DNA from: Acidimicrobiia bacterium
GTDB taxonomy: Bacteria > Actinomycetota > Acidimicrobiia > Acidimicrobiales > Bin134
Length of the DNA: 64,000 nt
NCBI GenBank assembly: GCA_022822905.1
Contig: JAJDYE010000008.1
Coordinates: 32,846-96,845 of the forward strand
Direction of reading: 5' to 3'
Shown here: positions 1-54,286 of the stretch, piece after piece
Layout of the letters: every line of letters begins with the position of its first letter
How positions within the stretch are numbered: position 1 is the first letter of the stretch
Notes under the pieces: generated by a model
Databases searched by the model: none
What the model was told of the DNA's origin: nothing
What the model saw: the letters and a program-made list of their open reading frames with translations, nothing else
Made by a program: the position numbers and the translations under genes

Positions 1-422
1 GTTTCCGGGTGCTACGGGTAATCGAGATTTTGGGCATCGTGCGGCGGGAGCTGGTGGTGCAACTCCATCCTCGGGCGGTGGTGCCGGTTAGGGTGTCGGG
101 AGCGGTGGCTTCGGAGGCTTCGCTCACCCGAGTCCATAACTTCCAGATTCTGTGGGTGCTGGCCGCCGCCTCGGGGGTGTTCGGCATCGCCTTGCTGGGG
201 GGAGACATGCCGACCGCAGTGTCGGGGTCGATCTCCGCGCTGGCTACCGCCGGACCTGGCTTGGGCGATCTCTCGGGTTTTGCCGATGCCACGGTGCTGG
301 CTGCCCCGGCTCGAGGGGTGTTGATTGCCCTGATGTTCCTGGGCCGGCTGTCGATCTACCCGGTGGTGGTGGTGATCGGCTGGGGTATAGGCGAGATCCA
401 GCGGATGCGGCTGAGACGATGA
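1..422 (+). CDS. trkH: TrkH/KtrB-family K+ transporter, C-terminal fragment (gene starts upstream of window)
   Basis: The C-terminal sequence ISALATAGPGLGDLSG...ARGVLIALMFLGRLSIYPVVVV parallels the C-terminus of the next gene (ISALSNMGPALGDAG...ARAVLMSMMLIGRLEFF). Stop TGA at 420-422. Confidence 0.7.
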   Translation, partial: FRVLRVIEILGIVRRELVVQLHPRAVVPVRVSGAVASEASLTRVHNFQILWVLAAASGVFGIALLGGDMPTAVSGSISALATAGPGLGDLSGFADATVLAAPARGVLIALMFLGRLSIYPVVVVIGWGIGEIQRMRLRR

Positions 423-478
423 GGCTGAGACGATGAGGCTGGGGCGATGAGGCTGGAGACATGAGGCTGGGGCCATGA
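405..478. repeat. 14-bp tandem repeat, 5 units (atg[ac]ggctgNNNcN), spanning the trkH1 stop and the trkH2 start
   Basis: Units start at 405, 419, 433, 447 and 461. Each contains ATG, GAGG (unit 0 has GCGG) and, with the next unit, a TGA. Read directly from the sequence. Confidence 0.95.
419..478 (+). other. Chain of four 5-codon mini-ORFs (MRLRR, MRLGR, MRLET, MRLGP), each overlapping the next by ATGA
   Basis: ATG at 419, 433, 447 and 461; TGA at 434-436, 448-450, 462-464 and 476-478. The first ATG overlaps the trkH1 stop (420-422). The last TGA overlaps the trkH2 ATG (475-477). Confidence 0.6.
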
Positions 479-2055
479 CCGCGGTATTGACGGCTGCCCG
501 TCGGGGGAGGGCCGCGGTGAAATGGGCTGTGTCCCAGCTTCTGGTAGACCGACCCTGGAATGTGACCAGCAGAGTGGGGTTCGTGGTCGGGCTGGGGCTC
601 CTGTTCATGGTGCCGGGGATGCTGTTGGCCACCCTGGTGGAGTGGGGGTCGTCGGTATCGGACGATGAGATTGCCCTGGGAATGGGAGCGCTGGTCACGC
701 TTGTTGGAGGGGGGCTGTTGGTGACCTTCACTCGGCTCGACGAGGACATGCCCCCGGCCTCGGTCTTCGCGGCGGTGGCATGGACGTGGATCGGCTTGTC
801 GCTATTCGCCGCGCTGCCGCTGTGGTTTTCCGGCGAGCTGGGGAGCTTCGACACTGCCCTGTTCGAGGCGGTGTCGGGCGTTACCGCCACCGGCTCCACC
901 GTGCTCAGCCCCATAGAGGGGACGGGCCGAGGCGTGCTCATGTGGCGCCAGATCATGCAGTGGTACGGCGGCATGGGCATGGTGGTGCTGGCGGTGACCA
1001 TTCTGCCGTTCCTGGGGGTCGGAGGGCTGAGCCTCATCACTGCGGAGGCTCCCGGTCCCACGTCCGACCGGCTGGCGCCTCGGGTGAGTTCCACTGCCCG
1101 GAGGTTGTGGGCACTCTACGGTGGCATCACCCTCGCGATAGCGGCCGCCCTGATGATCGCCGGATTGAGCCTCTACGACGCAGTGGTCCATGCCTTCACC
1201 AGCGCAGGCACCGGGGGCTTCTCGCCTTACGACGACTCCATCGGCCACTTCGACAGCATCGCGGTGGAAGCGGTGATGATTGTTGGGATGCTGGTGGGAG
1301 GGGTGAGCTTCACCCTTCACTGGCGGGCGGTGTCGGGCAACCCGGGGGTTTACGGAAGGTCTTCTGAGTTTCGCACCTATCTCCTTGTGATATTCGCGGT
1401 CGCGTTGTTCGCGTCCCTGCTGAACTGGCTGAACGACTTGTCTGATCTGGCCAACAGTCTCCGCAACGGGATCTTCGGCGCGGTGACCCTGGGCACCAGC
1501 GGCGGTTTCGGCAACGCCTCCAGTGCCAATCCGGGCGGCGATTTCGCGGCATGGACGCCGGGGGCACAGGCATTGCTGCTGCCCCTCATGGTGATGGGGG
1601 GCATGACCGGGAGCACCGCCGGGGGGTTGAAAGTGTTGCGGGCCCAAGTGATGGCGAAATACATGCGGGTCGGGCTGCTGCGAGTGAAGCATCCCAGGGT
1701 GGTGGCACGGGTGAAGCTCGGCCAAATGGTGGTGTCGGAGCCGATACTCCAGCGGGTGGCGGGGCTGGTGGCCCTCTACGCGTTGTCAGCGCTTGTGGCA
1801 ACTTTGGTGCTGGCCGCATTGGGCCAAGACCTGATCACTTCCTCGTCTGCGGCCATAAGCGCGTTGAGCAATATGGGACCCGCTCTGGGCGACGCCGGGC
1901 CCACCTCCAACTACTTGGTGTTCTCCCGTCCGGCCCGGGCGGTGCTGATGTCGATGATGCTCATCGGCCGCCTGGAGTTCTTCGCCATCTTCTTGGTGGT
2001 GGTGTCGGCCTACGAGCGGACCCGTCGGCTGACCCGAGTCAACCTGCGACGTTGA
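475..2055 (+). CDS. trkH: TrkH-family potassium uptake protein
   Basis: 526-aa polytopic membrane protein with repeated pore-loop-like motifs (TATGSTV, SAGTGGFSP, GGMTGSTAGGLKV), typical of TrkH/KtrB. Confidence 0.85.
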   Translation: MTAVLTAARRGRAAVKWAVSQLLVDRPWNVTSRVGFVVGLGLLFMVPGMLLATLVEWGSSVSDDEIALGMGALVTLVGGGLLVTFTRLDEDMPPASVFAAVAWTWIGLSLFAALPLWFSGELGSFDTALFEAVSGVTATGSTVLSPIEGTGRGVLMWRQIMQWYGGMGMVVLAVTILPFLGVGGLSLITAEAPGPTSDRLAPRVSSTARRLWALYGGITLAIAAALMIAGLSLYDAVVHAFTSAGTGGFSPYDDSIGHFDSIAVEAVMIVGMLVGGVSFTLHWRAVSGNPGVYGRSSEFRTYLLVIFAVALFASLLNWLNDLSDLANSLRNGIFGAVTLGTSGGFGNASSANPGGDFAAWTPGAQALLLPLMVMGGMTGSTAGGLKVLRAQVMAKYMRVGLLRVKHPRVVARVKLGQMVVSEPILQRVAGLVALYALSALVATLVLAALGQDLITSSSAAISALSNMGPALGDAGPTSNYLVFSRPARAVLMSMMLIGRLEFFAIFLVVVSAYERTRRLTRVNLRR

Positions 2056-3301: not shown

Positions 3302-3467
3302 TCCAGCCTCATCATTAACAGGCGATTCCACCCTGTAATCATGCCTCTTGGGAGTCTCCCGAGCAGAACAGACTTGGTAGGGGACTGGGTTGCGGCGGTA
3401 AAATTGAAGCCCTGCCGCTGGCCAATGTCGTCTCGGCGCGCACCGCAAACACGCTGGAAAGGACGCA

Positions 3468-9540: not shown

Positions 9541-9548
9541 CCCCTCCT

Positions 9549-10241
9549 CTAGAAGGGGCGGGCGTCGAGGAAGTCGAGGGCGGTGTCGATGAAGTCGAAT
9601 GATTTGGGGGTGGCGAAATGATCGACGCCCCTAAGGACGACGAGGCGGGCGTCGGGCAGGGCTTCCACCAACTGGTCAGCGGGGTAGGCGAAGTCCTTAT
9701 CGCCCACCACCACGAGGGTGGGCACCGCGACATGGGCGAGGCAATCGGTGTCGAAGGCGGTGCGGCTGGCCAACAGGGCGGCGAGTGCCTCCCGGTCGGC
9801 TTCGGGATCATCGGCCAGGGTGGAGAAGTGGAGTGCTTCGGGGTTCTGGGGGTCGGGCTCACCGGTGACGGCGTGAAGGATCATGCGGCTGTGGTCCTCA
9901 TCCCGTTCGAATAGGTTCTTGCCCACCCCGGATACAACCAGCTTGTGGAATCGCTCCGGGGTCTTTGAGGCGATGGACAACAGGGTGTAGGCCCCCAACG
10001 AAAACCCGATGGCGTCGATGGGCTCGTTGGGGAAGTGGTCGATCACATGCTCTTCGAAATTGGCATAACCCTCGGGATGGTGGGGTTTGGGAGCGGTGCC
10101 GTGGCCCATCAGGTCGACACCGATTGCTTCCCGACCGGCATCGGCCAAGAGGTCGAGCCAGGCGTTGTCTCCCCAAGTCCTTCTGGCCGAACCGGCCAGT
10201 CCGTGCAGTAATGCGACTGCGGGTCCGCTCACCTCGCTCAC
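9549..10241 (-). CDS. Alpha/beta-fold hydrolase
   Basis: 230 aa with HG oxyanion motif (LLHGLAGS) and nucleophile elbow GFSLG. GTG start. Confidence 0.75.
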   Translation of the reverse strand: MSEVSGPAVALLHGLAGSARRTWGDNAWLDLLADAGREAIGVDLMGHGTAPKPHHPEGYANFEEHVIDHFPNEPIDAIGFSLGAYTLLSIASKTPERFHKLVVSGVGKNLFERDEDHSRMILHAVTGEPDPQNPEALHFSTLADDPEADREALAALLASRTAFDTDCLAHVAVPTLVVVGDKDFAYPADQLVEALPDARLVVLRGVDHFATPKSFDFIDTALDFLDARPF

Positions 10242-10276
10242 ACTAGTGACGGCTGAAGAGCAACTTGCGAAGCGCC

Positions 10277-10307
10277 AGAGAAAAGAAGGAGGCCCCGAGT
10301 AGCCTCC
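10277..10307 (-). terminator. Intrinsic terminator candidate ending the ncRNA candidate
   Basis: The minus strand reads GGAGGC-tactcggg-GCCTCC followed by TTCTTTTCT. Confidence 0.5.
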
Positions 10308-10553: not shown

Positions 10554-10559
10554 GGGCAT

Positions 10560-10587: not shown

Positions 10588-10590
10588 GCG

Positions 10591-10625: not shown

Positions 10626-10693
10626 AGTAGAAATCCCCAAGAAACCTGCATTTAACCACAGGCATAAGCCCGATTTGGAGCTTGGATCGACCC

Positions 10694-15354: not shown

Positions 15355-16552
15355 GCCCAGCCAGCCCGTTAGCCTCGACAGAGTGGAAGCCCTAGTCACC
15401 TCTCGGCGCAAGTTGGCCGCGGTGGTGGCTGATGCATCGACCGCAGATGCCTATGCCCTGGATACCGAATTCCACCGGGAGCGCACCTACTACCCCCGAC
15501 TCGCACTGGTCCAGATCGCCTGGCGCGATCAGCTGGCCATCATCGACCCGCTGGAAGTTCCCATAACCCCGCTGGCCAAGCTGTTGGACGGTGAAGGGCT
15601 TGCCGTGCTCCATGCCGCGGAGCAGGACTTGGAGGTCCTCTGCCACGAATGCGGGACGCGGCCTCGGAGGATTTTCGACACCCAGATAGGGGCCGGGTTC
15701 ATCGGCTACAGCTCGCCTTCGCTGGCCGCGCTCCACGATCGCCTGCTGGGGGTGGAATTGGCCAAGGAAGCTCGTATGTCCGACTGGTTTCAGCGGCCGC
15801 TGCCCGATCGCATGCTGGCCTATGCCGCGGCCGATGTGGAGCGCCTACTGGAGATCAGCGACATCTTGCAGAAGGAACTGCATGCCCGAGGCCGTCTGGA
15901 ATGGGCTGAGGAAGAGTGTGCGCTCTTGTTGGAGCGGGCCGACGCAGGCCGGTCTCCCGAAACCGCCTGGCACCGGATCAAAGAGGTCCGCCGAATGGAG
16001 GGTCGACAAAGGGGGATAGCCCAAGCGGTGGCCCGATGGCGGGAAGAGTACGCTGCCCGTTTGAATAAGCCCGTTCGCCATGTGCTGTCGGATCTGGGGG
16101 TTGCGGTTGTGGCTCAACGCATGCCCAAGTCACTCGCCCAGTTGCGGGAGATACGGGGTGTCGAGCCTCGCAACCTTCGCAAGGGCGCCGACAAGGAGCT
16201 GTTGGCCTTCCTCGACGGGCTCAAAGACGCTGAAATGGCGGTCGAGCCGGCCAGCAAGTCGCCCAAGTTGGATCCAGCGCTCAAGCCGGCGGTCAATCTC
16301 ATCACGTCGTGGGCCGCCCAGCACGCCGCCGACGCCGCTATCGATCCAGCCCTAGTAGCCACCCGCAGCGATATCGAGGCTCTGCTGAGGGGCGATCCGG
16401 ATTGTCGAGCTCTCAAGGGGTGGCGAGCCGACATCATCGCGGCACCGGTCCAGCGATTGTTGAGCGGGACCGCGGCAGTAGCCTTCGACAGCCAAGGCAA
16501 GCTCACGCTTGAGGAGCGCTCAGGGCGACCGATTTTGGACACACATGAGTGA
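15326..16552 (+). CDS. rnd: Ribonuclease D
   Basis: DEDD exonuclease motifs (ALDTEF, HAAEQDLEVL, YAAADVERL) plus an HRDC-like C-terminal region. Start uncertain (ATG 15326). Confidence 0.85.
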   Translation: MSTHPKTSAEPSQPVSLDRVEALVTSRRKLAAVVADASTADAYALDTEFHRERTYYPRLALVQIAWRDQLAIIDPLEVPITPLAKLLDGEGLAVLHAAEQDLEVLCHECGTRPRRIFDTQIGAGFIGYSSPSLAALHDRLLGVELAKEARMSDWFQRPLPDRMLAYAAADVERLLEISDILQKELHARGRLEWAEEECALLLERADAGRSPETAWHRIKEVRRMEGRQRGIAQAVARWREEYAARLNKPVRHVLSDLGVAVVAQRMPKSLAQLREIRGVEPRNLRKGADKELLAFLDGLKDAEMAVEPASKSPKLDPALKPAVNLITSWAAQHAADAAIDPALVATRSDIEALLRGDPDCRALKGWRADIIAAPVQRLLSGTAAVAFDSQGKLTLEERSGRPILDTHE

Positions 16553-16604
16553 GTTGCGCTTCATGAATCCGATTTCCGCTGATCCATTGAAAGGAAGCAC
16601 ATGA
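16545..16604 (+). other. 19-codon bridging mini-ORF (MSELRFMNPISADPLKGST) between rnd and the PRTase gene
   Basis: Its ATG 16545 lies inside CATGAGTGA, which contains the rnd stop (16550-16552). Its TGA 16602-16604 overlaps the downstream ATG 16601 (ATGA). Confidence 0.4.
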
Positions 16605-17262: not shown

Positions 17263-17481
17263 ATGAAAAAGGGACGCCACCGTCGTTACGAAGAAGCTCG
17301 TGCGCTGAAGCACACAAGCGACGACTTCGACGTTATGTTCGAAGAGAACGAGGACCCATGCGTGGAATGTGGAGCCATCCCCGGTGAGGAATGCCGACTC
17401 GTGAAGGTTGGGGCAAAACCCTGGTGCGAATACCGGGACACCCCGAACGCTGACAGCGTTGACGAGCTATTTCCCGACTGA
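17263..17481 (+). CDS. Small acidic hypothetical protein with 4 Cys (CxxC-x8-C-x11-C)
   Basis: 72-aa ORF in a locally A/T-richer stretch. No recognised family. Confidence 0.4.
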   Translation: MKKGRHRRYEEARALKHTSDDFDVMFEENEDPCVECGAIPGEECRLVKVGAKPWCEYRDTPNADSVDELFPD

Positions 17482-17537
17482 GCCGGTCTTCTCAAGACGA
17501 CCTATTTCCTGACAGAGCCGGTCTTACTAGACCCCGG

Positions 17538-21636: not shown

Positions 21637-22838
21637 TGACGGCGAAGAAATCGCTCGGAATCGACACCGAGGAGATGGCTTCCAGACCCGCATTGGGAAT
21701 CGACACCGAGGAACTGGCCTCATGCGTGTCGTGTGGGCTGTGCTTGCCCCATTGCCCGACATTTCGGGTGACCGGCGAAGAGTGGGCCTCGCCGCGGGGG
21801 CGCATCAGCGCCATGCGCCAGGTGCAAGACCACGGCATGGCCGTGGACGAGTCCTTCTTAGCCTCGATGGATTCGTGTGTGCAGTGCCGGGGATGCGAGC
21901 CGGCCTGTCCGTCCGGGGTGCCCTTCGGCTCGATGATGGAGGCCACGCAAGCTGAATTGGCTCGACGGCGGCGCGTGGACTGGCGCCGGTGGGGATTCCG
22001 GGTTCTCGGCCATCGCTGGCTGTTGAGCCTGCTGTCTCGGTCGCTGGCCGTGGTCCAGCGGCTTCGGTTGGTGCCTTCCAAGCGACTGGGACTGCCCAAG
22101 ATTCCCCTGGTGCAAGAGCGGCTTCGAGCGACCGGCAACGACGTATGGCTGTTCACCGGCTGCGTGATGGACGCTTGGCAACGATCAACCCACGCCTCGG
22201 TGAAGCGGGTGGTGGAGTCGGCTGGCGCCGGCGTAGCCCTGCCAAGCCCAGGCGCGGCGTGCTGCGGCGCTTTGTCGCTCCATGCTGGTTTGGAAGATCA
22301 TGCCCACGCCCTGGCCGCCCGAACGATGAAGGCCTTGGAGGGTTCAGCCCCGATTCTGGTGGACTCGGCCGGTTGTGGGGCTGTTCTCAAGGAGTACGGC
22401 AAGCACTTGGGCACCCCAGAAGCCGTCGCCTTCAGCGAGCGGGTGATGGACGTACATGAGTGGCTGGCAGCTCAGGCCGACCAACTGCCATCAGTGGGGG
22501 AGCGGCGCCGGGATGTGATCGTCGCGGTTCACGATCCCTGCCATCTGCGCCATGTGCAGCGAGCCCATCAACCGGTGGCCGATGTGTTATCCAGCTACGT
22601 CACTATGGTCACTCTGGACGACGAGGGTCTGTGCTGTGGGGCCGGCGGTGCCTACGCTGCCATGCAACCGGAGCTTGCGGCATCGATCCGTGATCGCAAG
22701 CTGGAGGCCATCAACCGCTCCGGCGCCGATATCGTGGCCAGCGCCAATCCCGGCTGCACCATTCACTTGGCCAATGCCGGGGTGGACGTGCGCCACCCCT
22801 TGGAGATCGTGGACGAGGCAATCGACTATGACGGCTGA
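21636..22838 (+). CDS. glcF: (Fe-S)-binding protein, glycolate oxidase subunit GlcF-like
   Basis: Two ferredoxin-type clusters (CVSCGLCLPHCP, CVQCRGCEPACP) and two CCG-type Cys-rich domains. Confidence 0.85.
   Translation: MTAKKSLGIDTEEMASRPALGIDTEELASCVSCGLCLPHCPTFRVTGEEWASPRGRISAMRQVQDHGMAVDESFLASMDSCVQCRGCEPACPSGVPFGSMMEATQAELARRRRVDWRRWGFRVLGHRWLLSLLSRSLAVVQRLRLVPSKRLGLPKIPLVQERLRATGNDVWLFTGCVMDAWQRSTHASVKRVVESAGAGVALPSPGAACCGALSLHAGLEDHAHALAARTMKALEGSAPILVDSAGCGAVLKEYGKHLGTPEAVAFSERVMDVHEWLAAQADQLPSVGERRRDVIVAVHDPCHLRHVQRAHQPVADVLSSYVTMVTLDDEGLCCGAGGAYAAMQPELAASIRDRKLEAINRSGADIVASANPGCTIHLANAGVDVRHPLEIVDEAIDYDG
21657..21734. repeat. In-frame 39-nt tandem duplication at the glcF 5' end
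   Basis: ggaatcgacaccgagga occurs at 21657 and 21696. The protein reads LGIDTEEMAS..LGIDTEELAS. Confidence 0.9.
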
Positions 22839-28456: not shown

Positions 28457-28488
28457 TCAGATGGTCATGGGAAATGTCGGATGGTCAT
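28457..28488 (-). other. Two consecutive mini-ORFs (MTIRHFP, MTI) bridging the FIST gene and tkt
   Basis: Minus strand: ATG 28488 overlaps the FIST stop (28487-28485). Its TGA (28467-28465) overlaps the second ATG (28468). The second TGA is at 28459-28457, 16 nt before tkt ATG 28440. Confidence 0.4.
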
Positions 28489-28493
28489 GGGAA
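28460..28493. repeat. Perfect 14-bp direct repeat (gatggtcatgggaa) with 20-bp period
   Basis: Copies at 28460-28473 and 28480-28493, across the FIST stop and the FIST-tkt spacer. Confidence 0.95.
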
Positions 28494-36855: not shown

Positions 36856-38655
36856 ATGACAGACGGCGACGCAGCGGCAGATACAGGTATCGCACCAGAG
36901 GAGTCTTCTCCAGCCGAGCAAGCAGGTATCGCACCAGAGGAGTCTTCTCCAGCCGAGCAGGTAGCAGCGCTTGAAGAAGAGATTGCCGTTCTCCGCCAGC
37001 GGCTTCAGGATGCCCCCAAGCGGGTCCGCACCCTAGAAGAGCGGCTCTTGGAGACCAAGGGACAGCTGGCCAAGGCTGTCTCCCAGAACGAGAAGCTCAC
37101 CTACACCCTTCGCGAAGCCCGTGAGCACATTTCCGCCCTGCGGGATGAGGTGGACAAACTCACCCAGCCCCCGTCGGCGTACGGGACTCTGCTGGGTCGC
37201 AACGAGGACGGGACGGTGGATGTGTTCTCGGGGGGTCGCAAGATGCGGGTCGCCCTCCATCCCGAGATCGAGTCTGAGGAGCTGAGCCGGGGACAGGAGG
37301 TTGTTCTGAACGAATCGCTGAACGTCGTTCTTTCCCGGGTGGGCGATGGCACCGGCGAGGTGGTGACCATCAAGGAGGTATTGGCCGGCGGTCTGCGGGC
37401 GCTCATTGTCGGGCGGGCCGACGAGGAGCGCGTGGTGGAGTTGGCCACCGAGATGATCGACCAGCCGCTCAAGAGCGGGGACACCGCGCTTATGGACTCT
37501 CGCTCGGGTCTGCTCGTCGAGCGCCTGCCCCGGCCCGAAGTAGAAGACCTCGTGCTAGAGGAAGTTCCCGATATCACCTACGAGCAGGTCGGTGGCTTGG
37601 ACGAGCAGATCGAGCAGATCACCGATGCGGTTGAGCTCCCCTTCGTTCACCAGGCTCTGTTCGCCGAGTACCAGTTGCCTGCACCCAAGGGCATCTTGTT
37701 GTACGGGCCGCCGGGTTGCGGCAAGACCCTGATCGCCAAGGCGGTGGCCAACTCCCTGGCCGGCAAAGTGGCCGACATCAGCTCGGACCGGGAAGCACGC
37801 TCCTATTTCCTGAATATCAAGGGTCCGGAACTGCTGAACAAGTACGTGGGCGAGACCGAGCGCCAGATCCGCCTGGTGTTCCAACGGGCTCGAGAGAAGT
37901 CGGCTGAGGGATGGCCGGTGATCGTGTTCTTCGACGAGATGGAATCTCTCTTCCGAACCCGGGGCACCGGGATCAGCTCTGATATGGAGTCCACCGTGGT
38001 GCCCCAGCTCTTGGCCGAGATCGACGGGGTGGAGACTCTGCGGAATGTGATCGTGATCGGCGCTTCGAACCGGGAAGACCTCATCGACCCGGCGATTCTG
38101 AGGCCGGGGCGTCTAGATGTGAAGATCAAGATCCAGCGTCCCGACGCTGACGCGGCCTGCGCCATTTTCTCCCGCTATCTCACCTCCGAGCTGCCAATCG
38201 CCGCCGAGATGGTGGAAGGTCTTGGCGGCGGCGACCCCGACAAGGCCATCCAGGCCATGATCGAGCAGACCGTGACCGAGATGTTCTTGGAAGAGGAGCG
38301 CAACCAGTTCTTGGAGGTCACCTACCAGAACGGTGACAAAGAGATCATGTACTTCAAGGACTTCGCTTCCGGAGCCATGATCGAGAACGTGGTACGGCGG
38401 GCCAAGAAGCTGGCCATCAAGCGTTTGTTGGCCGGCGGTGCGCCGGGCATCCACGTCACCGACCTGCTGAAGTCGGTGAACCAGGAGTATCGGGAGCACG
38501 AGGATCTGCCCAACACCACCAACCCCGACGACTGGGCCAAGATCTCGGGCAAGAAGGGGGAGCGAATCGTGTTCGTCCGCACGCTCCTGTCCGACGAGGA
38601 GTCGAGCCAGGGCGGGCGCTCCATAGAGGCCATCGGCCCCGGCCAATACCTCTGA
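36856..38655 (+). CDS. mpa: Proteasome-associated AAA ATPase (Mpa/ARC)
   Basis: Coiled-coil N-terminus, OB domains, Walker A GPPGCGKT, Walker B IVFFDEME and C-terminal GQYL docking motif. Confidence 0.95.
36886..36963. repeat. In-frame 39-nt tandem duplication in the mpa N-terminal region
   Basis: Copies at 36886-36924 and 36925-36963 differ at 2 positions. The protein reads [26 protein letters not shown]. Confidence 0.95.
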
Positions 38656-41358: not shown

Positions 41359-42032
41359 CCATGCCCTTCTACGTCGCGCCCGAGCAACTGATGAAGGATC
41401 GGGCTGACTTTGCCCGCAAGGGAATCGCCCGAGGTCGGGCCCTGACTGCGCTCAGCATCAGCAACGGCATTTTGATCTGCGCGGAGAATCGGTCGAACAC
41501 GTTGCGCAAGGTGAGCGAGATCTACGATCGGATCGCATTCGCCGGTGTCGGCCGCTACAACGAGTTTGATCAGCTCCGTATCGCCGGCGTGCGCCATGCC
41601 GACCTCAAGGGTTACACCTACAGCCGCGACGACGTGGACGCCCGGAGTCTGGCCAATCAATACGCCCAAGTTCTAGGCCAGACCTTCACCCATGAGATGA
41701 AGCCGATGGAGGTGGAAATACTGGTGGCTGAAGTGGCTTCTGATCCCGGTGGCGATCAGATGTTCCACGTGCTCTACGACGGCACTGTCAACGATGAGTC
41801 CGGCTACACCGTGTTGGGGGGAGAGGCCGACTCCATTGCCGAGCAATTGGGTCAGACCTACGACGGTGAATGGGAAGTGGGCGATGCCGTCAAGGCCTCC
41901 TCGGCCGCGCTGAGCGGTCAGGAGCGCACACTGGAAGCCGACGACCTCGAGGTGGCTCTCTTGGTTCGGGAGACCGGTCGGAGGGCGTTCCAGAGGATCG
42001 AGGGCGACGAACTGGCTGAGTTGTTGATCTGA
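41355..42032 (+). CDS. prcA: 20S proteasome alpha subunit
   Basis: [25 protein letters not shown] start. ATGA overlap with prcB. Confidence 0.93.
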
Positions 42033-42067
42033 TGAACCGGCGGGATCTCGGGATCGAGAACGGGTAG
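42032..42067 (+). other. 11-codon bridging mini-ORF ([11 protein letters not shown]), a decayed copy of the pafA 5' end
   Basis: ATG 42032 overlaps the prcA stop (42030-42032). TAG at 42065-42067 is 2 nt before pafA ATG 42070. The peptide resembles Paf[14 protein letters not shown]. Confidence 0.5.
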
Positions 42068-42069
42068 GC

Positions 42070-43428
42070 ATGGAGCGGCGCATCTTCGGGATAGAGAATG
42101 AGTACGGCGTTACCTGCGCGCTGCGTGGACATCGCCGGCTCAGCCCCGATGAGGTGGCCCGCTATCTGTTCCGCCGGGTTGTGTCATGGGGCCGTAGCAG
42201 CAATGTCTTTCTGGTCAATGGTGCCCGGCTCTACCTCGATGTGGGTTCGCACCCCGAGTACGCCACCCCAGAGTGCGACTCTGTCTACGACTTGGTGGCC
42301 CATGACAAGGCCGGCGAGCGGATTCTGGAAACGCTTATTGAGAGCGCCGAGCAGCGGTTGCGGGAAGAAGGGATCCAGGGGGACATCTACCTGTTCAAGA
42401 ACAACACCGATTCGGCGGGGAACAGTTACGGTTGCCACGAGAACTACCTGACGAGTCGGCGCGACGACTTCTCCGAGTACGCGGAGGTCCTGATTCCGTT
42501 CCTGGTCAGCCGCCAGATCTATGCCGGGGCGGGCAAGGTGCTCCAGACGGCTCGCGGGGCCACCTACTGCATGAGCCAAAGAGCCGAGCACATCTGGGAG
42601 GGGGTTTCCAGCGCAACCACCCGTTCTCGGCCGATCATCAACACCCGCGATGAGCCCCACGCCGACGCTGAGCGGTATCGAAGGCTGCACGTGATCGTGG
42701 GCGATTCCAATATGAGCGAATACGCCACTTTCTTGAAAACAGGAGCGACCAGCATCCTGCTTCGGATGTTGGAAGACCCATCGGTAGCGTTGAGAGACAT
42801 GACCTTGGACAACCCGATCCGGGCTATCCGAGAGATCAGCCATGACCCCACCTGCACTCGGCGGATACGCCTAGCCAGCGGCCGCGAGGTCAGCGCACTG
42901 GAGATCCAGTCTGAGTACCTCGACCGGGCGCTCAAGTACGCCGACAGTCGGGAGCTGGAGCCCCAAGAGAAGCAGGCCCTTCAGATGTGGGAGCATTGCC
43001 TGGTCCAGATCGCCAAGGATCCCCTCGGTTTGACCCGGGAATGCGATTGGGTGATGAAGTACCACCTAATCGAGGCCTACCGTGAACGCCACGACCTTGG
43101 TCTCGGCGACTCCCGGGTGGCCTTGCTAGATCTTCAGTACCACGACGTGAACCGCTCGCGCAGCTTGTTCTACCGGATGCAGAATCGGGGCTTGGCCGAG
43201 CGGATGTGCGTCGACGACGAGATCAGCCATGCGGTCGAGCACCCGCCCGCCACTACTAGGGCCCGACTCCGGGGAGAGTTCATTCGTCGGGCAAAGGAGC
43301 GCAAGCGGGACTACACCGTGGACTGGGTGCATCTGAAGTTGAACGACCAAGCCCAGCGGACCGTACTCTGCAAAGACCCGTTCCGAGCCCATGACGAGCG
43401 GGTGGAAAAGCTGATCGAATCCTTGTGA
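42070..43428 (+). CDS. pafA: Pup--protein ligase
   Basis: [28 protein letters not shown] and NSYGCHENY motifs; 452 aa. Confidence 0.95.
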
Positions 43429-43460
43429 TGTCCGGGCGCAAGCCAGAGCAGGGGCGCTGA
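43428..43460 (+). other. 10-codon bridging mini-ORF ([10 protein letters not shown]), a decayed copy of the pafB 5' end
   Basis: ATG 43428 overlaps the pafA stop (TGATG). TGA 43458-43460 overlaps pafB ATG 43460 (TGATG). It shares aagccagagcagg with pafB codons 8-12. Confidence 0.5.
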
Positions 43461-45378: not shown

Positions 45379-45392
45379 GGGTATTCAACGCC

Positions 45393-46082: not shown

Positions 46083-46089
46083 TTCTCGC

Positions 46090-46941
46090 TCAACGGTCGT
46101 AGGGATTCTGGCCGTGGCCGTGGTCGTTGAAGACGTGGATTACTCCATCGGTGTGGTCGTCGTGCTCGCCGTGGAATACGCAATCGTCCTTATCGCCGTG
46201 GGCCATGCGAAGGCCGAAGGCCTCTTGCAAGTTCTTGTTGGTCAGAACCTCACCGGGCGGGCCCAAAGCGACTATCCGGGTGGCCAAGAGAATCACCTGG
46301 TCGCAAAGTTCGGCCTCGTCCATGTGATGGGTGGAGATAACCACGATTCGACCCCGCCTGCGTTCCTCATCGACGATGCGAAGGATCGTCTCTTGGCTGG
46401 GGATATCCAAGCCGGTAATGGGCTCGTCCATCAACAGCACGTCGGCGCCGTGGGCCAAGGCCTGGGCCACCATTACCCGCTGGCGCTGGCCTCCCGACAG
46501 CTCTCCGAACTGGCGATTGCCCAAGTCGGATACTTCGAGGCGTTCGGCCGCATTCTCGATCAGTATCCGATCTGCTGCTCCCAAACGCTTGATCAAACCT
46601 CGGTCGCGGAAACGGGACATGCGCAGCACGTTGGAAACGGTCAATGGCATCCACCCCCGCTGTCCGTGGTGCTGAGCCACTAGAGCGAATATCTTCTTGG
46701 AGGGTTCTGGGCAGATGGTCCCTTGGGCTGGCGGGATGAGGCCGCACATCATTCTGAGCAGGGTGGTCTTGCCCGAGCCATTTGGCCCGATCAGAGCGGT
46801 GGACGTTCCATGCTCGAATTGGCAGGTGACGTCAGCGAGGGCGACGTGACCGTTGCCGAATTTGGCGGTGACGTCGGCGAAGGCAATGGGATCTTTGTTT
46901 TGAGCGACCAGGGCCTTGACAGATGCGGCTTGCTCGCTCAT
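46090..46941 (-). CDS. ABC transporter ATP-binding protein (metal-type) with His-rich C-terminal tail
   Basis: Walker A GPNGSGKTT, signature LSGGQRQR, Walker B LLMDEP. Tail HGDKDD..HGEHDDH..DHGHG. No permease or binding protein is adjacent. Confidence 0.85.
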   Translation of the reverse strand: MSEQAASVKALVAQNKDPIAFADVTAKFGNGHVALADVTCQFEHGTSTALIGPNGSGKTTLLRMMCGLIPPAQGTICPEPSKKIFALVAQHHGQRGWMPLTVSNVLRMSRFRDRGLIKRLGAADRILIENAAERLEVSDLGNRQFGELSGGQRQRVMVAQALAHGADVLLMDEPITGLDIPSQETILRIVDEERRRGRIVVISTHHMDEAELCDQVILLATRIVALGPPGEVLTNKNLQEAFGLRMAHGDKDDCVFHGEHDDHTDGVIHVFNDHGHGQNPYDR

Positions 46942-47684: not shown

Positions 47685-47692
47685 TAGTCAAA

Positions 47693-47772
47693 CCTTGAGC
47701 AGCCTCGCGGAGTATAGGTAGCGATGGTCACGCCTTGAGCAGCCCTGTAAAGGATAGGTAGCGGTAGCCTCT
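47693..47772. repeat. Imperfect 40-bp direct repeat in the divergent GDPD/tatA intergenic region
   Basis: ccttgagcagcc...ataggtagcg occurs at 47693 and 47733. Confidence 0.8.
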
Positions 47773-47776
47773 CGGT

Positions 47777-48139
47777 GTGGGCAACCTCGGATGGGCTGAG
47801 ATCGCGGTGATTGTGGTGGTGGCCCTGGTTGTGCTGGGACCAGAGAAATTGCCGGGAGCAGCTCGCCAGATCGGGAACGTCCTTCGTCAGGTCCGAAAGA
47901 TCTCCACTGGGTTTCAGCAGGAGTTGCAAAATGCCCTGGACGAGCCCATAGAGGCTGAAGCCCGCCAGCGCGGCCAGCTTGCCGTTGAACAGAGCAGGCA
48001 GGGAAGCAGTCCGGGGATGGCCGGGCACCGGGACGAGGCGGTGGCCGTTGAACAGAGCAGGCAGGGAAGCAGTCCGGGGAACGAGGAGTCGAAGACACAG
48101 ACTGAACAGACCTCCGACCCACCGCCAAGCAGCCAGTGA
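47777..48139 (+). CDS. tatA: Twin-arginine translocase TatA/TatB-family subunit
   Basis: GWAEIAVIVVVALVVLGPEKLPGAARQIG start (TM plus hinge plus amphipathic helix). Confidence 0.85.
   Translation: MGNLGWAEIAVIVVVALVVLGPEKLPGAARQIGNVLRQVRKISTGFQQELQNALDEPIEAEARQRGQLAVEQSRQGSSPGMAGHRDEAVAVEQSRQGSSPGNEESKTQTEQTSDPPPSSQ
47981..48080. repeat. In-frame 63-nt-period duplication inside tatA (37-nt perfect core)
   Basis: gccgttgaacagagcaggcagggaagcagtccgggga occurs at 47981-48017 and 48044-48080. The protein reads AVEQSRQGSSPG twice. Confidence 0.95.
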
Positions 48140-49567: not shown

Positions 49568-50799
49568 CTGAGGACTGCATTAACGCGACAATCCACGACG
49601 GGACAAGTAGCATTCGCCCCGTGACTCCCGATGCGGCCAAGCAGCAGATGGCTTCAGAGGTTGATGCCCGAGCATCTCGACTACTCAGCGTCTCCCACCA
49701 GATCCATGAGAACCCCGAATTGTGTTTCGAGGAGCACACCGCCCACGATCTGCTCTGCTCTGTCTTGGAGGACGAGGGGCTCGAAGTGGAGCGGTCGGCA
49801 TACGACCTAGACACGGCGTTTGTTGCCAGAGCAGGCGGCGCCGGCCCTCATGTTGCGGTGATTTGCGAATACGACGCATTGCCTGAGATCGGGCATGCAT
49901 GCGGTCACAATGTGATCGCAGCCGCGGGACTGGGTGCCGGATTGGCCGCGGCCGTCCTGGCCGACGAGCTTGGGGGACGCGTCAGCATTATCGGCACCCC
50001 TGCGGAGGAGGGCGGCGGCGGCAAGCAATACATGCTGGAGAGAGGCGCTTTCGACGGCATCAGCGCAGCCATGATGGTACACCCCGCCAATCACGAGCTC
50101 GTCCGCATGAACACCATCGCCGTGGAGCAGCTCGTGGTGACGTACACCGGTAGGCCATCCCACGCCTCCGCGTCACCCCACCTGGGCAGAAATGCCCTCG
50201 ACGGTGCGGTGCTGGGGTATATGAATGTGGCTGCCCTTCGCCAGCACATACGGCCCGATGAGCGCATCCACGGGATCTTCACCCGGGCTGGGGACAAGCC
50301 GAACATCGTTCCTCACGATGTCGCCGCAGAGTGGTACGTCCGCTCTCCGAAGCTGGACAGCCTGGCCGAGTTGAAAGAGCGGGTGGTGGCCTGCCTCGAA
50401 GCCGGTGCGGCGGCGGCCGGGGTGGACATTGAGTGCCGTCGCGAATCGCCGATCTTCGCCGACTTGATCGACAACCGGGTGCTGCTGGACCTTTATGCCC
50501 GCAACGCCGCGTCGATGGGGCGGATCGCTCTCGAGCCCAAGTCGTCGGCCGCTGTCGTGGGCAGCACCGATATGGGAAACGTAAGCTATGCGGTGCCGTC
50601 GATCCATCCCATGATCAAGGTGGCCCCGGACAATGTGGCTATTCACACCCCGGAGTTCGCCCACTACGCCGAATCGGAAAGAGGCGACCAGGCGGTGCTC
50701 GACGGGGCGAAGATCATGGCCATGACGGTGGCCGATCTGTGGTTGGATCCAGGCGTTACGAACCGGGCTGCCGATGAGTTGGCTCAAAGCCTGCAATGA
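49564..50799 (+). CDS. M20-family amidohydrolase/metallopeptidase
   Basis: IHENPELCFEE, YDALPEIGHACGHN and PAEEGGGGK motifs. Start uncertain: GTG 49564 gives a GTGA overlap; GTG 49621 and ATG 49648 are alternatives. Confidence 0.85.
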   Translation: MTEDCINATIHDGTSSIRPVTPDAAKQQMASEVDARASRLLSVSHQIHENPELCFEEHTAHDLLCSVLEDEGLEVERSAYDLDTAFVARAGGAGPHVAVICEYDALPEIGHACGHNVIAAAGLGAGLAAAVLADELGGRVSIIGTPAEEGGGGKQYMLERGAFDGISAAMMVHPANHELVRMNTIAVEQLVVTYTGRPSHASASPHLGRNALDGAVLGYMNVAALRQHIRPDERIHGIFTRAGDKPNIVPHDVAAEWYVRSPKLDSLAELKERVVACLEAGAAAAGVDIECRRESPIFADLIDNRVLLDLYARNAASMGRIALEPKSSAAVVGSTDMGNVSYAVPSIHPMIKVAPDNVAIHTPEFAHYAESERGDQAVLDGAKIMAMTVADLWLDPGVTNRAADELAQSLQ

Positions 50800-50852
50800 G
50801 TCAATACGTCGCCAACCGGCAATGGCCCTTCAGCGGCTTGGTTCGTCGCTAG
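50796..50852 (+). other. 18-codon bridging mini-ORF (MSQYVANRQWPFSGLVRR), a decayed copy of the thyX-like 5' end
   Basis: ATG 50796 overlaps the M20 stop (50797-50799, ATGA). TAG at 50850-50852 is 6 nt before ATG 50859. MSQYVAN resembles MTQYVAE. Confidence 0.5.
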
Positions 50853-50858
50853 CCTGCA

Positions 50859-52475: not shown

Positions 52476-52591
52476 GCTTGAGATGCTCTTTTGGCCAAAT
52501 GGAAGATTGAACGGGTAAGTGCGCACATTGTGGGCGCGCCGGTGTCTATGATCCGCGCTGATCGGATTGCCTGAGGAGGTAGCAGGGGAGC

Positions 52592-53098
52592 ATGACAGAC
52601 CCTGACGAGCACGACGAGATGCCGGACGAGGAGTTCGACGAAAGCGCCATCGACGACCTCGACGAAGACATCGGCGAGGAACTCGATGATGAGTTCGAAA
52701 CTGTCCTCGGAGACGGCGATCTTGAAGACGACGACCTTGACGACGACCTCGACGAGGAACTCGAGGAAGAGGAAGAGAGCGGGAACAACGGGCCGGCTCG
52801 CAACGCAACCGCGGGCGATGATGAGGATGGCGAAGGGGAGGACATCGACCCCGACAACGTCGAGGCTGATCTCGACACCATTTTGAAAGACCGCCTGGCC
52901 GCCGGTGACGACGAGGACGAAGACGAGGAGACTCCCGACCCGTCGCCTGAGACCTCGGGTCAGGTCGCGCCCAAGCGAGACAATGAGTGGACCTGCGAGG
53001 GGTGTTTCCTGATCGTCAGCTCAAGCCAGTTCGGGTCCCGCGAGAATCCCCGGTGCCCTTCGGGGGAAGAGCCCTGTCCGTCTTTGGCCCGGCTATGA
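52592..53098 (+). CDS. DUF4193-family protein (acidic N-terminus, C-terminal Cys4 zinc-ribbon-like)
   Basis: Long D/E tract followed by WTCEGCFLIVSSSQFGS..NPRCPSGEEPCP. Confidence 0.7.
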   Translation: MTDPDEHDEMPDEEFDESAIDDLDEDIGEELDDEFETVLGDGDLEDDDLDDDLDEELEEEEESGNNGPARNATAGDDEDGEGEDIDPDNVEADLDTILKDRLAAGDDEDEDEETPDPSPETSGQVAPKRDNEWTCEGCFLIVSSSQFGSRENPRCPSGEEPCPSLARL

Positions 53099-53349
53099 GC
53101 CCGACCAATGACGTCGATTCCTCCCGGGAGGTAACTGGTTTTTCCCGCGAGTCGATGGACCGTCTGCTTGATACGGTGCTCTACGCTCCCGTGGGGCTTT
53201 TGCTGTCGGTTGACTCGCCGCCTTCCGAGTTGGCGGCCCGGGGTCGCCGCCATTTGGAAGCAGCTCGCCTGCTCGGCCGCATGGCTTTGGACCATTCCTC
53301 AAGGCCTTCGGGGGCCAGCGTCGACCCCGTTGATTTAGAGCCAGGTTGA
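53095..53349 (+). CDS. Small hypothetical protein
   Basis: 84 aa. ATGA overlap with the DUF4193 gene, and its stop overlaps the GNAT start region. Confidence 0.4.
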   Translation: MSPTNDVDSSREVTGFSRESMDRLLDTVLYAPVGLLLSVDSPPSELAARGRRHLEAARLLGRMALDHSSRPSGASVDPVDLEPG

Positions 53350-53852
53350 ACGTGAGCGATCGGCCGAAAGAGGGTACGGCCCGACCGGCTCGTTTCGATG
53401 AGGTTGGCATTGTGGCCGACTTGGCTCGGGAGGCTCGCAGTGAGGCCCTCGAATACCGGGGAGGGGAGCGCTGGATGGCCACGGAGGCCGCCTCCGAGCC
53501 TCTTGAAGATCATCTCGCCGAGCTGTTGGCTGCTCCAGAAGCCTTCGTGGTCGTTGGGATATGGGAAGAAGCGGTGGTGGGATACGGATTGGCTCAGCGG
53601 GTTGTGCGCCGGGACGGATCCTTCATTGCTCGAATCGACGAGCTATACGTGACTCCTGATGCCCGTTCGGTGGGAGTGGGGGAGTCACTGTTCGATGCCC
53701 TGAAGAAGTGGGCTCAGGAACAGGGTCTGGTGGCGATTGATGCTTTCGTGCTTCCAGGCCACCGCGAGGCAAAGAACTTCTTCGAGACGTTCAAACTGAC
53801 GGCCCATGCGCTAATCGTGCACACGCAGCTTGATCAAGAGCCAGAAGCGTGA
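53346..53852 (+). CDS. GNAT-family N-acetyltransferase
   Basis: Acetyl-CoA motif A region RSVGVGESLFDALKKWAQEQG. Confidence 0.8.
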   Translation: MNVSDRPKEGTARPARFDEVGIVADLAREARSEALEYRGGERWMATEAASEPLEDHLAELLAAPEAFVVVGIWEEAVVGYGLAQRVVRRDGSFIARIDELYVTPDARSVGVGESLFDALKKWAQEQGLVAIDAFVLPGHREAKNFFETFKLTAHALIVHTQLDQEPEA

Positions 53853-53890
53853 GCCGGACTCCATAAGGTGCTGGCGCTGATGGGGCAGAT

Positions 53891-54286
53891 ATGAGCGGGC
53901 CGGAGCTATGTGTTGGGGCTGTAGTGGTTCGCGACGGTGCCATTCTGTTGATCCGTCGGGGTAGTCCCCCAGGAGAAGGGCTGTGGTCGGTACCCGGTGG
54001 GCGGGTGAAGAAAGGGGAAACTCTAGCTGAGGCTGTTCGCCGCGAGCTGCGAGAGGAGACCTCCCTTGATGGAGAAGTGGGCCAGGCGGTGGGCTGGACT
54101 GAGCTCATCGGCCGACGACGCCACTACGTGGTGGTGGACTACTGGGTCACGGTGGCACCCGACGCGGTGCCAACGGCAGCTACCGATGCCTCAGACGCGG
54201 CATGGGTAGCGCTTGATGACCTAGAAGAGTGGGACTTGGTAGACGGCCTGCTGGAATTCCTGAGCGATCATCAAGTTATCGGCTAG
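53891..54286 (+). CDS. NUDIX hydrolase
   Basis: Nudix box GGRVKKGETLAEAVRRELREETSL. Confidence 0.88.
   Translation: MSGPELCVGAVVVRDGAILLIRRGSPPGEGLWSVPGGRVKKGETLAEAVRRELREETSLDGEVGQAVGWTELIGRRRHYVVVDYWVTVAPDAVPTAATDASDAAWVALDDLEEWDLVDGLLEFLSDHQVIG

Follow-up and report, generated by a model that had tools for sequence, protein, structure and literature searches.

Short tandem duplications recur at gene boundaries in the stretch of DNA analysed here (the window), a 64-kb segment of a metagenome-assembled genome (MAG) from a sponge-associated actinobacterium of the class Acidimicrobiia, genus Ca. Poriferisocius. Around 12 such duplications, of 14-63 nt, sit at gene boundaries in the window (Table 1), and the junction-duplication pattern is real and still arising. 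The unduplicated state is seen in sister species for seven of the events, and the ages of the duplications range from within-species polymorphism, as in the tatA insert and the trkH copy number, to genus-wide. The explanation that we consider probable is that the duplications are made locally and then survive only where both genes, and the translational coupling between them, remain intact.

An initial annotation of this DNA had reported mini-ORFs, termed relays here, at six same-strand junctions (trkH1/trkH2, rnd/PRTase, FIST/tkt, prcA/pafA, pafA/pafB and M20/thyX-like), and direct reading of the sequence bore out all six. Its description of these ORFs as running from the upstream stop to the downstream start holds generally, the exception being the FIST/tkt chain, which ends 22 nt before the tkt ATG. 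The proposal that most of them are copies of the downstream 5' end, however, does not extend to the trkH and FIST/tkt units, which duplicate the junction together with the 3' end of the upstream gene. Two weaker cases that had been listed as free of duplicated sequence, MGQI and a stop codon at 53880-53894 and MEPT and a stop codon before 62335, indeed contain no duplication, and the frequency of such ORFs is at chance level. Three further events, of 35, 21 and 40 nt, were absent from the earlier list; they lie over the stop of the 72-aa ORF hyp72, in the C-terminus of an alpha/beta hydrolase and upstream of tatA, respectively.

Table 1. Duplications, junctions and relay ORFs in the window.
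Feature	Position	Strand	Basis or detail
trkH1/trkH2 junction VNTR	404-478	+	14-nt unit GATGAGGCTGNGNC, 5 copies
trkH1/trkH2 landmarks	trkH1 stop 420-422; trkH2 ATG 475	+	read from sequence
trkH1/trkH2, four 5-codon relay ORFs	419-436, 433-450, 447-464, 461-478	+	ATGA link between successive ORFs
alpha/beta hydrolase C-terminus, 21-nt in-frame duplication (FDFIDTA / LDFLDAR)	9556-9598	-	TRF score 65
rnd/PRTase junction	16536-16604	+	40-nt derived insertion 16536-16575
rnd/PRTase relay ORF, MSELRFMNPISADPLKGST and stop	16545-16604	+	ATG 5 nt before rnd stop; TGA overlaps PRTase ATG 16601
35-nt tandem duplication over stop of 72-aa ORF (hyp72), convergent junction	17461-17525	+	absent from L169, L170
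GlcF N-terminus, 39-nt in-frame duplication (LGIDTEEMASRPA / LGIDTEELAS)	21657-21721	+	repeat reading and relatives
FIST/tkt junction	28457-28493	-	20-nt duplication of FIST stop and ATGA
FIST/tkt relays, MTIRHFP and stop; MTI and stop	28488-28465; 28468-28457	-	read from sequence
mpa N-terminal region, 39-nt in-frame tandem duplication	36884-36961	+	repeat reading
prcA/pafA junction	42032-42069	+	diverged 38-nt copy of pafA 5' end
prcA/pafA relay ORF	42032-42067	+	11-letter peptide; compared with PafA N-terminal letters
pafA/pafB junction relay	43428-43460	+	TGATG at both ends; second TGATG on pafB start
40-nt tandem duplication, promoter-like stretch upstream of tatA	47687-47763	+	alignment with L004, L005
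tatA C-terminal tail, 63-nt in-frame insertion	region 47981-48106; insert 47981-48043	+	alignment with relatives
M20/thyX-like junction	50788-50858	+	63-nt derived insertion
M20/thyX relay ORF	50796-50852	+	MSQYVANRQ.. and stop, compared with MTQYVAEQ

The MAG source of the sequence, and the proneness of short tandem repeats to mis-assembly, might suggest that metagenome assembly introduced the duplications. Identical duplications, however, recur when the same species is assembled independently (L081-L088, from three samples), and thus do not reflect assembly artefacts. The same structures also occur in sister species whose MAG assemblies are complete and chromosome-level, and substitutions have accumulated between the older copies, such that the probability of an artefact is negligible.

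At the trkH1/trkH2 junction the number of relay ORFs ranges from 0 to 4 across about 30 species of the clade, with a direct NTGA overlap between the two genes in four of them (L264, L271, L279 and L281), and the number also varies within the species, the window carrying four relays versus one in the GTDB representative (L249). The ancestral trkH1 tail holds GATGA twice, 14 nt apart, providing microhomology, and once two copies exist slippage turns the site into a VNTR, as is shown for trkH. The chain from trkH1 to trkH2 is unbroken in 31 of 32 species, with the interior ATGA links kept despite 40 distinct unit sequences. Upstream, the chain from trkA to trkH1 is unbroken in 30/30 species and its relay peptides vary; this relay copies a segment ending in RPDTVDEVKRFFG and a stop, and its 59-nt unit is present in 1-3 copies. 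The conservation of GTGA and ATGA at trkA/trkH1 is partly imposed by the flanking coding sequences.

Comparison with sister species shows that the inserts are derived, having entered either stop-start overlaps that were originally ATGA/TGATG (M20/thyX and rnd/PRTase) or short spacers. At rnd/PRTase, L169 displays a plain ATGA overlap and L170 a TGATG. The insert in the window duplicates the PRTase start (GGACACACATGAGTGA) and the 3' end of rnd, and the C-terminus of the relay, PISADPLKGST, is the ancestral rnd C-terminus. In L004 and L005 the M20 and thyX-like genes simply overlap at ATGA, while the insert in L001 can be read as two duplication rounds (26 + 37 nt) of AGCCTGCAATG...CGTCGCT. The FIST/tkt junction, which is single copy in L169, has been hit twice independently in two species, by the 20-nt event of the window and by a 57-nt event in L170. 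The pafA/pafB relay repeats the KPEQ codons of pafB, and the start-to-start distance at this junction is 17 nt in L003 and L004, 32 nt in the window and 56 nt in L005, all of which are 2 mod 3; the steps between these lengths, of 15 and 24 nt, are multiples of 3.

At prcA/pafA the start and stop of the relay are preserved in 5/5 Poriferisocius species, and the relay is missing in more than 25 other Acidimicrobiia. The conservation of ORF boundaries across species here, and at trkA/trkH1 and trkH1/trkH2, could indicate that the products of the mini-ORFs are functional, either as small proteins or as regulatory leader peptides. The encoded sequences, however, drift freely, as illustrated by the prcA/pafA variants (for example MERRASGTENG / MVRRASGKGNG) and by VSRR / VSME / VSPA, and copy number varies. 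A leader peptide or regulatory upstream ORF would be expected to retain a conserved peptide or regulatory codons, together with an alternative RNA structure, and the relay peptides differ across the species compared. It is thus extremely unlikely that the relays are maintained for the peptides that they encode.

The in-frame duplications that the initial annotation had placed near the 5' ends or in linkers of mpa, glcF and tatA are all present, but the tatA copy is located in the C-terminal tail and not near the 5' end. In mpa the motif CAGGTA opens both copies, which are 39 nt apart, and recurs directly after the second; the duplication is found in the window, L001, L081 and L002 and is missing in L003 and L004. 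The glcF duplication also occurs in L169 and L170, and is therefore genus-wide and older. The tatA insert comprises an exact 37-nt copy of 48044-48080 and 26 nt of filler, of which a window-wide search revealed no second copy. The window and L082 carry this insert, but L001, which belongs to the same species, lacks it, as do L002, L004 and L005, and the insert is thus polymorphic.

Junction duplications are approximately fivefold enriched in the window. With a cut-off of at least 13.5 for the junction-centred repeat score, 6/42 window junctions were positive compared with 51/1744 junctions from other loci (Fisher p=0.0017). Short direct repeats with a spacing of 10-100 nt, in contrast, show no general excess, the window containing 18.8 per 100 kb versus 23.4 across other actinobacterial loci totalling 3.9 Mb and about 17 when these loci are restricted to a GC-matched subset; the enrichment is confined to the junction-located class. 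Comparable events were found in other Acidimicrobiia loci (L031, L047, L064, L247, L225 and L134).

These data bear on the earlier suggestion of a lineage mutational bias. Such a bias, as the main cause of the density, would take the form of a raised rate of 10-100 nt duplications or insertions in Poriferisocius, owing, for example, to replication that is prone to slippage or to end joining that adds templated filler. The genus does seem to be prone to junction duplication. In addition to the fivefold enrichment, the repeated events at FIST/tkt and the within-species polymorphism, L005 contains around ten junction or terminus insertions of its own in 21 kb, including PrcB/PrcA +41, PafB/PafC +62, CoA-ligase/S13 +47 and three 35-nt units at tatA/tatC, where the relays join VSNTA, from the TatC N-terminus, to DPPPSNQ and a stop, from the TatA C-terminus. 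The inserts that bear filler also suggest an unusual repair route. It should be emphasized, however, that the general repeat density is not elevated, that local junction densities in other Acidimicrobiia loci are similar (3/20 in L031 and 3/17 in L047) and that the window was chosen post hoc by the initial annotation. A mutational bias is thus a possible, if doubtful, main cause.

The route that we favour, local duplication followed by survival where coupling is retained, would begin at a junction in which the upstream stop overlaps the downstream start (ATGA, TGATG, GTGA or ATGNNTGA). A short tandem duplication, in some cases with filler, would be made locally across this operon junction, and the upstream gene would then end at the first copy of the stop and the downstream gene begin at the last copy of the start. 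As both proteins would be unchanged, boundary events would be expected to persist while equivalent intragenic mutations are purged; within genes, the only survivors would be events that keep the frame and fall in termini or tails that tolerate them, such as those in mpa, glcF and tatA. The relay ORF, as shown by its sequence, joins the duplicated downstream start, often with a Shine-Dalgarno-like GAGG, to a duplicate of the upstream 3' tail with its stop. Given the right period modulo 3 (2 for -4/-1 overlaps and 1 for -8), the relay would read the copy of the upstream tail in its native frame. The relay would then stop exactly on the downstream start, and the statistics described below suggest that a terminating ribosome would be passed from ORF to ORF as before, and the events that persist would be those with a coupled or an in-frame period. 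The duplications would have originated by slippage between microhomologies, and the selection step and translation of the relays are likewise putative. Head-to-tail copies with no spacer and with microhomology at their borders, the signature of slipped-strand events, are seen at trkH, mpa, the 35-nt hyp72 event and FIST/tkt, while the inserts with 26-50 nt of filler (tatA, M20/thyX and GltB/GltD) go beyond simple slippage.

The relationship between period and frame was assessed in a hand-curated tally of 13 events, selected from the repeat scan or alignment without regard to ORFs. In 10 of these the duplication period places the relay stop on, or adjoining, the next start (binomial p=0.0016, for a rule that was itself shaped partly by the window data), and out-of-frame overruns were observed in 0/13. 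The exceptions to the coupled frame are M20/thyX (63 nt), the L170 FIST/tkt event (57 nt) and Pup/PrcB (+49 nt). The -8 overlap of GltB/GltD is accompanied by periods of 67 and of 58, values that are 1 mod 3 and agree with the prediction of the rule, and the chains were unbroken in hand-checked arrays from L031, L064, L225, L134 and L247. The links of the relay chains are ATGA, GTGA, TGATG or ATGNNTGA overlaps, and thus have the geometry of coupled genes, with stop and start overlapping by 1, 4 or 8 nt or within a few nucleotides of each other; this does not hold for M20/thyX, with 6 nt between the ATG and the stop of the relay, or for FIST/tkt, with its 22-nt gap.

It might be contended that the relays are a neutral by-product, untranslated or irrelevant, that the duplications persist solely because neither flanking protein is damaged, and that the frame preference stems from chance, young age or composition. 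Under the rule of the initial annotation, in which ORF ends lie within ±8 nt of the flanking stop and start, relay ORFs were only marginally more numerous than in shuffled spacers, both with ATG starts alone (4 versus 1.7, p=0.04) and with GTG and TTG included (6 versus 3.4-3.7, p=0.05-0.1). An automated permissive chain test in other Actinobacteria revealed no significant difference between junctions with a duplication (7/25) and those without (221/1263; p=0.18). Stop-covering repeats at convergent junctions likewise avoid periods of 1 mod 3, and thus part of the frame bias may derive from hidden +1-frame stops and not from coupling. Relay peptides, furthermore, are not conserved, and the tatA and mpa events are too recent for decay. 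Neutrality, however, is difficult to reconcile with the coupled frame of 10 of the 13 events and the lack of overrun in any of them (p≈0.002), with the shift of the preferred period to 1 mod 3 at the -8 overlap, which matches the coupling geometry, with the 15- and 24-nt steps at pafA/pafB or with the retention of interior ATGA links at trkH. We therefore regard a purely neutral origin of the relays as unlikely. Selection to preserve translational coupling, the second option raised in the initial annotation, is supported, short of proof, by the frame fit and by the pafA/pafB and trkH data; the marginal relay counts and the chain test weigh against it.

A more far-reaching proposal is that relay copy number in these symbionts, such as the 0-4 at trkH1/trkH2 with its within-species polymorphism, acts as a selected, heritable and reversible dial on the ratio of products from adjacent operon genes, and that the modulo-3 rule governs in general how bacterial gene overlaps can be opened up. 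Each extra relay would then lower or reset the efficiency with which ribosomes are handed over. We consider this proposal improbable.

The view in the initial annotation that such a feature had not been described is only partly true. The nearest precedent is MIRU-VNTR: MIRU of mycobacteria, as summarised in the review PMC12548453 (citing Supply 1997), are intergenic operon repeats that carry a small ORF coupled at -4 nt to its neighbour. MIRU, similar to the repeats described here, are short, lie in operon junctions in the orientation of the genes, vary in copy number between strains and contain the -4 coupled small ORF, so that insertion hardly disturbs expression (PMC12548453). MIRU are dispersed, consensus-bearing and considered mobile, in contrast with the present inserts, which copy their own junction and are mutually unrelated. 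The units reported here are, in addition, shorter (14-63 nt) and the host belongs to Acidimicrobiia, not Mycobacterium. Common MIRU units are 53 and 77 bp long, both 2 mod 3. In the window the repeats lie between co-oriented genes, their small ORFs overlap the stop and start of the neighbours, and the trkH and trkA/trkH1 arrays behave as VNTRs. These similarities in operon position, orientation, coupling and copy-number behaviour could point to a mobile or dispersed repeat family of the MIRU type, with start codons as its target. Pairwise local alignment of nine inserts or units, however, gave no score of at least 10 except one marginal 11; each insert copies its own flanks, and the 26-nt tatA filler occurs just once in the window, which makes membership of such a family very unlikely. 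The junction repeats resemble MIRU but appear to arise locally.

Other known systems share individual features with the junction repeats. The links between relays have the geometries of termination-reinitiation coupling at -4/-1 overlaps (PMC12548453, PMC10666635), but whereas the classical arrangement is a direct gene-to-gene overlap, here 1-4 non-conserved mini-ORFs intervene and are predicted to relay the ribosome. Slipped-strand VNTRs, which include promoter tandem repeats of M. tuberculosis (PMC12817950), are likewise head-to-tail, with microhomology at their borders and copy number that changes within a species; the present repeats differ in being specific to stop/start junctions and in having a period that tracks the reading-frame geometry. 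Borg tandem repeats (PMC9879509) also originate locally and evolve rapidly, and those that are in frame extend disordered regions, as at mpa and tatA; they are, however, described as pervasive, while those reported here are sparse and mostly two-copy.

Junction duplication may provide a sequence-level route by which overlapping, coupled genes are separated while both proteins are kept, and would account for the origin of some junction mini-ORFs and intergenic VNTRs. The frame rule, in which overlap geometry sets the period, offers a simple prediction for complete genomes and reporter assays, and dispersed MIRU-like elements could plausibly descend from relay units of local origin. In practical terms, gene annotations should leave out the mini-ORFs, and the junction repeats are ready strain markers for uncultured sponge symbionts. 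The 40-nt duplication upstream of tatA represents extra sequence in the lineage of the window relative to L004 and L005, the polarity of the change being ambiguous. A promoter-proximal repeat is also present in the mpa/dop spacer of L004.

The initial annotation described short duplications at gene junctions of the window together with relay ORFs, mini-ORFs between two same-strand genes that run from the upstream stop to the downstream start, and this overall observation is confirmed. All the mini-ORFs that it listed are present, as reading of the six junctions showed (Table). It had also described most of the relays as copies of the downstream 5' end, which does not hold for the trkH and FIST/tkt units, as these consist of the upstream 3' end plus the junction. 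Nor does the FIST/tkt chain end on or next to the downstream start, since it terminates 22 nt ahead of the tkt ATG. The GNAT/NUDIX and MEPT* mini-ORFs, which contain no duplicated sequence, were treated as chance occurrences rather than as part of the pattern.

Junction duplications and other features of the window
Feature	Position	Strand	Observation
trkH1/trkH2	404-478		five 14-nt units; ORFs MRLRR*, MRLGR*, MRLET*, MRLGP*, each beginning on the terminal ATGA of the preceding ORF
C-terminal duplication	9556-9598		21 nt
rnd/PRTase	16545-16604		relay begins 5 nt ahead of the rnd stop; its end lies on the ATGA at the PRTase start
Convergent junction	17461-17525		35-nt duplication over the stop
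FIST/tkt	28457-28493	minus	FIST stop region duplicated, 20 nt
prcA/pafA	42032-42067		relay is a diverged copy of the PafA start
pafA/pafB	43428-43460		TGATG at both ends; pafB KPEQ codons repeated
ABC ATPase	46815-46897		42-nt similarity, 76% identity
Upstream of tatA	47687-47763		40-nt promoter-like tandem duplication containing TTGAGC-N17-TATAGG
tatA insert	47981-48043		63 nt; short exact junction copy plus filler
tatC start	48136; 48190		possible GTG overlapping the tatA stop (GTGA); called ATG
M20/Thy1	50796-50852		MTQYVA repeated as MSQYVA
Acidic low-complexity ORF	52592-53098		12-15 nt D/E-L repeats

The window has a GC content of 64% and encodes trkH1/trkH2, gltBD, rnd, glcDEF, cofGH, tal-tkt, an mpa-dop-pup-prcBA-pafABC cluster, tatAC, an M20 peptidase, a Thy1-domain gene and a Tad-like cluster. 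In PafA it matches the Acidimicrobiia MAG JAJDUJ010000007.1 at 100% identity and four MAGs named Candidatus Poriferisocius at 94-99%; for GltD no close relatives appeared among the matches listed. Exact-protein look-ups recovered the same species in independent assemblies of three samples, whose called genes and Pfam hits were used to build a table of 65 genes. Our own gene caller matched 60 of the 65 reference 3' ends but just 73% of the starts, and controls were therefore based on stop positions. The window differs from JAJDUJ010000007.1, the GTDB species representative, in having four trkH relays rather than one and the 63-nt tatA insert, and reads like the ENA assemblies ERZ23491334 (L082) and ERZ23491646 (L085) at the sites compared, namely the tatA insert, M20/Thy1 and rnd/PRTase; it thus represents a different strain. 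Identical structures in independent assemblies rule out an assembly artefact.

Comparison with sister species indicates the direction and age of these events. At M20/Thy1 the genes simply overlap by ATGA in the sister-species loci L004 and L005, while the window, the same-species locus L001 and locus L002 carry an additional 63 nt, which in L001 reads as two duplication rounds of AGCCTGCAATG...CGTCGCT. Similarly, rnd and the PRTase gene overlap by ATGA in L169 and by TGATG in L170, both sister-species loci, and are separated in the window by a 40-nt insert in which the PRTase start and the rnd 3' end are both copied; the final 11 codons of the relay are the ancestral rnd C-terminus. FIST/tkt is single copy in L169, extended by 20 nt in the window and, independently, by 57 nt in L170; neither sister locus has the 35-nt stop-spanning duplication. 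The 39-nt mpa duplication is confined to the window, L002 and two same-species loci (L001 and L081), the 39-nt glcF duplication is genus-wide, and the prcA/pafA copy, found in 5/5 Poriferisocius species, is absent from every one of more than 25 other Acidimicrobiia. The tatA insert is polymorphic, as the window and L082 carry it and L001, of the same species, lacks it. The trkH junction is a VNTR with 0-4 relays over some 30 species, four of which have a direct NTGA overlap. Overlapping genes thereby end up separated by 30-60 nt spacers holding relic ORFs, after which the site is able to act as a VNTR. In the window 29% of same-strand junctions have a spacer of this kind, compared with 18% elsewhere. 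The inserts proved unrelated when compared with one another and are therefore local copies rather than a dispersed element. In L005 the upstream prcA/pafA copy (L005 positions 9925-10040) is nearly identical to that locus's own pafA 5' end, both containing GACCGTCGC, while the copies of other species have diverged, which suggests either gene conversion or a new duplication there.

The geometry of these duplications says more about the relays than their mere presence does. When an ATGA or TGATG overlap is duplicated with period d, the ORF beginning at the first downstream-start copy keeps to the native frame of the second upstream-tail copy, and so terminates on the downstream start, only for d = 2 mod 3; an 8-nt overlap (ATGNNTGA) requires 1 mod 3 instead. 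In a hand-curated tally limited to events from the repeat scan or alignments, not from ORF searches, 10 of 13 events conform (binomial p=0.0016 against one third): trkA/trkH1 (59), trkH1/trkH2 (14), the window FIST/tkt (20), prcA/pafA (38), pafA/pafB (17, 32 and 56), four events in L005 (PrcB/PrcA, 41; PafB/PafC, 62; CoA-ligase/S13, 47; tatA/tatC, 35) and GltB/GltD, whose periods of 67 and 58 are both 1 mod 3, as its -8 overlap predicts. The exceptions are M20/Thy1 (63), FIST/tkt of L170 (57) and Pup/PrcB (49, ambiguous), and in none of the 13 events does the relay overrun the downstream start in another frame. Chains are also conserved. Between trkH1 and trkH2 the chain stays unbroken in 31 of 32 species despite 40 distinct unit sequences, and between trkA and trkH1, where the flanking genes partly dictate the end motifs, in 30/30, with a drifting bridging peptide (VSRR, VSME, VSLE, VSPA and others). 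In nearly all species of the clade (L249-L284) the three genes form a single unbroken chain of -4 overlapping ORFs; at the trkA/trkH1 junction, which lies just beyond the left edge of the window and in these loci precedes the trkH2 match by about 1.3-1.4 kb, this chain includes the 4-codon bridge and 0-2 copies of a 59-nt unit encoding a copy of the TrkA C-terminus.

Some of this periodicity may stem from something other than translational coupling. High-scoring stop-covering repeats at convergent junctions of other actinobacterial loci, where there is no downstream start, also avoid 1 mod 3 (8 at 2 mod 3, 11 at 0, none at 1); this bias may be caused by the hidden +1-frame NTGA stops abundant in high-GC genes. 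Relay counts also call for caution. If a relay must start and end no more than 8 nt from the flanking stop and start, four ATG relays are present in the window where shuffled spacers give 1.7 (p=0.04), and six where they give 3.4-3.7 once GTG and TTG are included (p=0.05-0.1), a marginal excess. A permissive automated ORF-chain test, kept solely as a caution, did not tell duplicated from unduplicated junctions in other genomes, finding chains at 28% and 17.5% of non-overlapping junctions, respectively (p=0.18), a high background. Relay presence alone is thus weak evidence, and that for relays being more than a by-product is mixed. The original interpretation is partly supported: the periods and the conserved chains make coupling-compatible survival of junction duplications likely, as read from sequence. 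For the mutational bias that it also offered, support is weak, in that overall repeat density is not raised: short direct repeats (10-100 nt spacing) number 18.8 per 100 kb in the window and 23.4 in 3.9 Mb of other actinobacterial loci (about 17 in the GC-matched subset), and a general excess of tandem duplication is therefore rejected.

Enrichment is seen at the same-strand junctions. A junction-centred score of at least 13.5 was reached by 6/42 window junctions against 51/1744 elsewhere (Fisher p=0.0017, optimistic because the window was picked for its pattern), and by 7/99 in sister species. The duplication process is clearly active within the genus: L005 has four junction insertions in 21 kb (CoA-ligase/S13, +47; PrcB/PrcA, +41; PafB/PafC, +62; tatA/tatC, 35 nt x 3), and in dop, trmI, hyp70 and the ABC ATPase it shows further events that span a stop or are in frame. 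The triplicated tatA/tatC unit holds the GTGA of the possible tatC start, its final copy being in frame into TatC. Among other Acidimicrobiia, L031 has five 35-nt units forming a chain of MTDPAGRDAARP* relays and a 47-nt duplication of the prcA start; junction arrays occur also in L064, L225, L134 and L247, and the one array hand-checked in each of these five loci is an unbroken chain. A genus-level propensity for junction duplication, possibly mutational, is plausible.

The duplications would originate by slippage between short direct repeats, such as GATGA, repeated at a distance of 14 nt in the ancestral trkH1 tail QRMRLRR*, and CAGGTA, repeated at 39 nt in mpa. Simple slippage is insufficient for inserts at tatA, M20/Thy1 and GltB/GltD, which carry 26-50 nt of filler, and these would need some template-switching or end-joining route. 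For the 26-nt tatA filler no source was found within the window. The same structure, a short exact junction copy plus filler without detectable source, is seen at GltB/GltD in L264, L274 and L283. Intragenic events would then be lost unless in frame and within tolerant segments, while those at stop/start boundaries would spare both proteins, the persisting ones probably being those in which the relay stops on the next start or which are in frame.

The closest precedent, and the sole close one in the literature found, is the MIRU, an operon-junction repeat whose small ORF shows -4 nt coupling with the adjacent gene and whose insertion would affect expression little, as outlined in a review (PMC12548453, citing Supply 1997). 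Position, orientation, a coupled small ORF (coupling here being read from sequence) and VNTR behaviour are common to both, but the window inserts do not form a dispersed consensus family, the defining feature of MIRUs. Ordinary slipped-strand VNTRs likewise match these events, which also parallel the M. tuberculosis promoter tandem repeats of variable copy number reported in PMC12817950, where dop-promoter copy-number analyses are among the methods. The open-access papers searched contained no account of overlapping junctions duplicating themselves under such a frame rule.

The three in-frame duplications proposed near 5' ends or in linkers (mpa, glcF and tatA) are all real, that in tatA sitting in the C-terminal tail. 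The repeat scan added three that had been missed, the 21-nt, 35-nt and promoter-like duplications (Table). A promoter-like AAGTCATGTAGCGTGCC is also repeated before dop in the mpa/dop spacer of L004. The ABC ATPase similarity was rejected as a duplication, as the copies encode two similar N-terminal segments (IAFADVTAKFG and VALADVTCQFE); the sole indel listed near it in the L004/L005 alignment is a 15-nt gap in L005 at 46893. The acidic ORF is the source of several repeat-finder hits unrelated to junctions.
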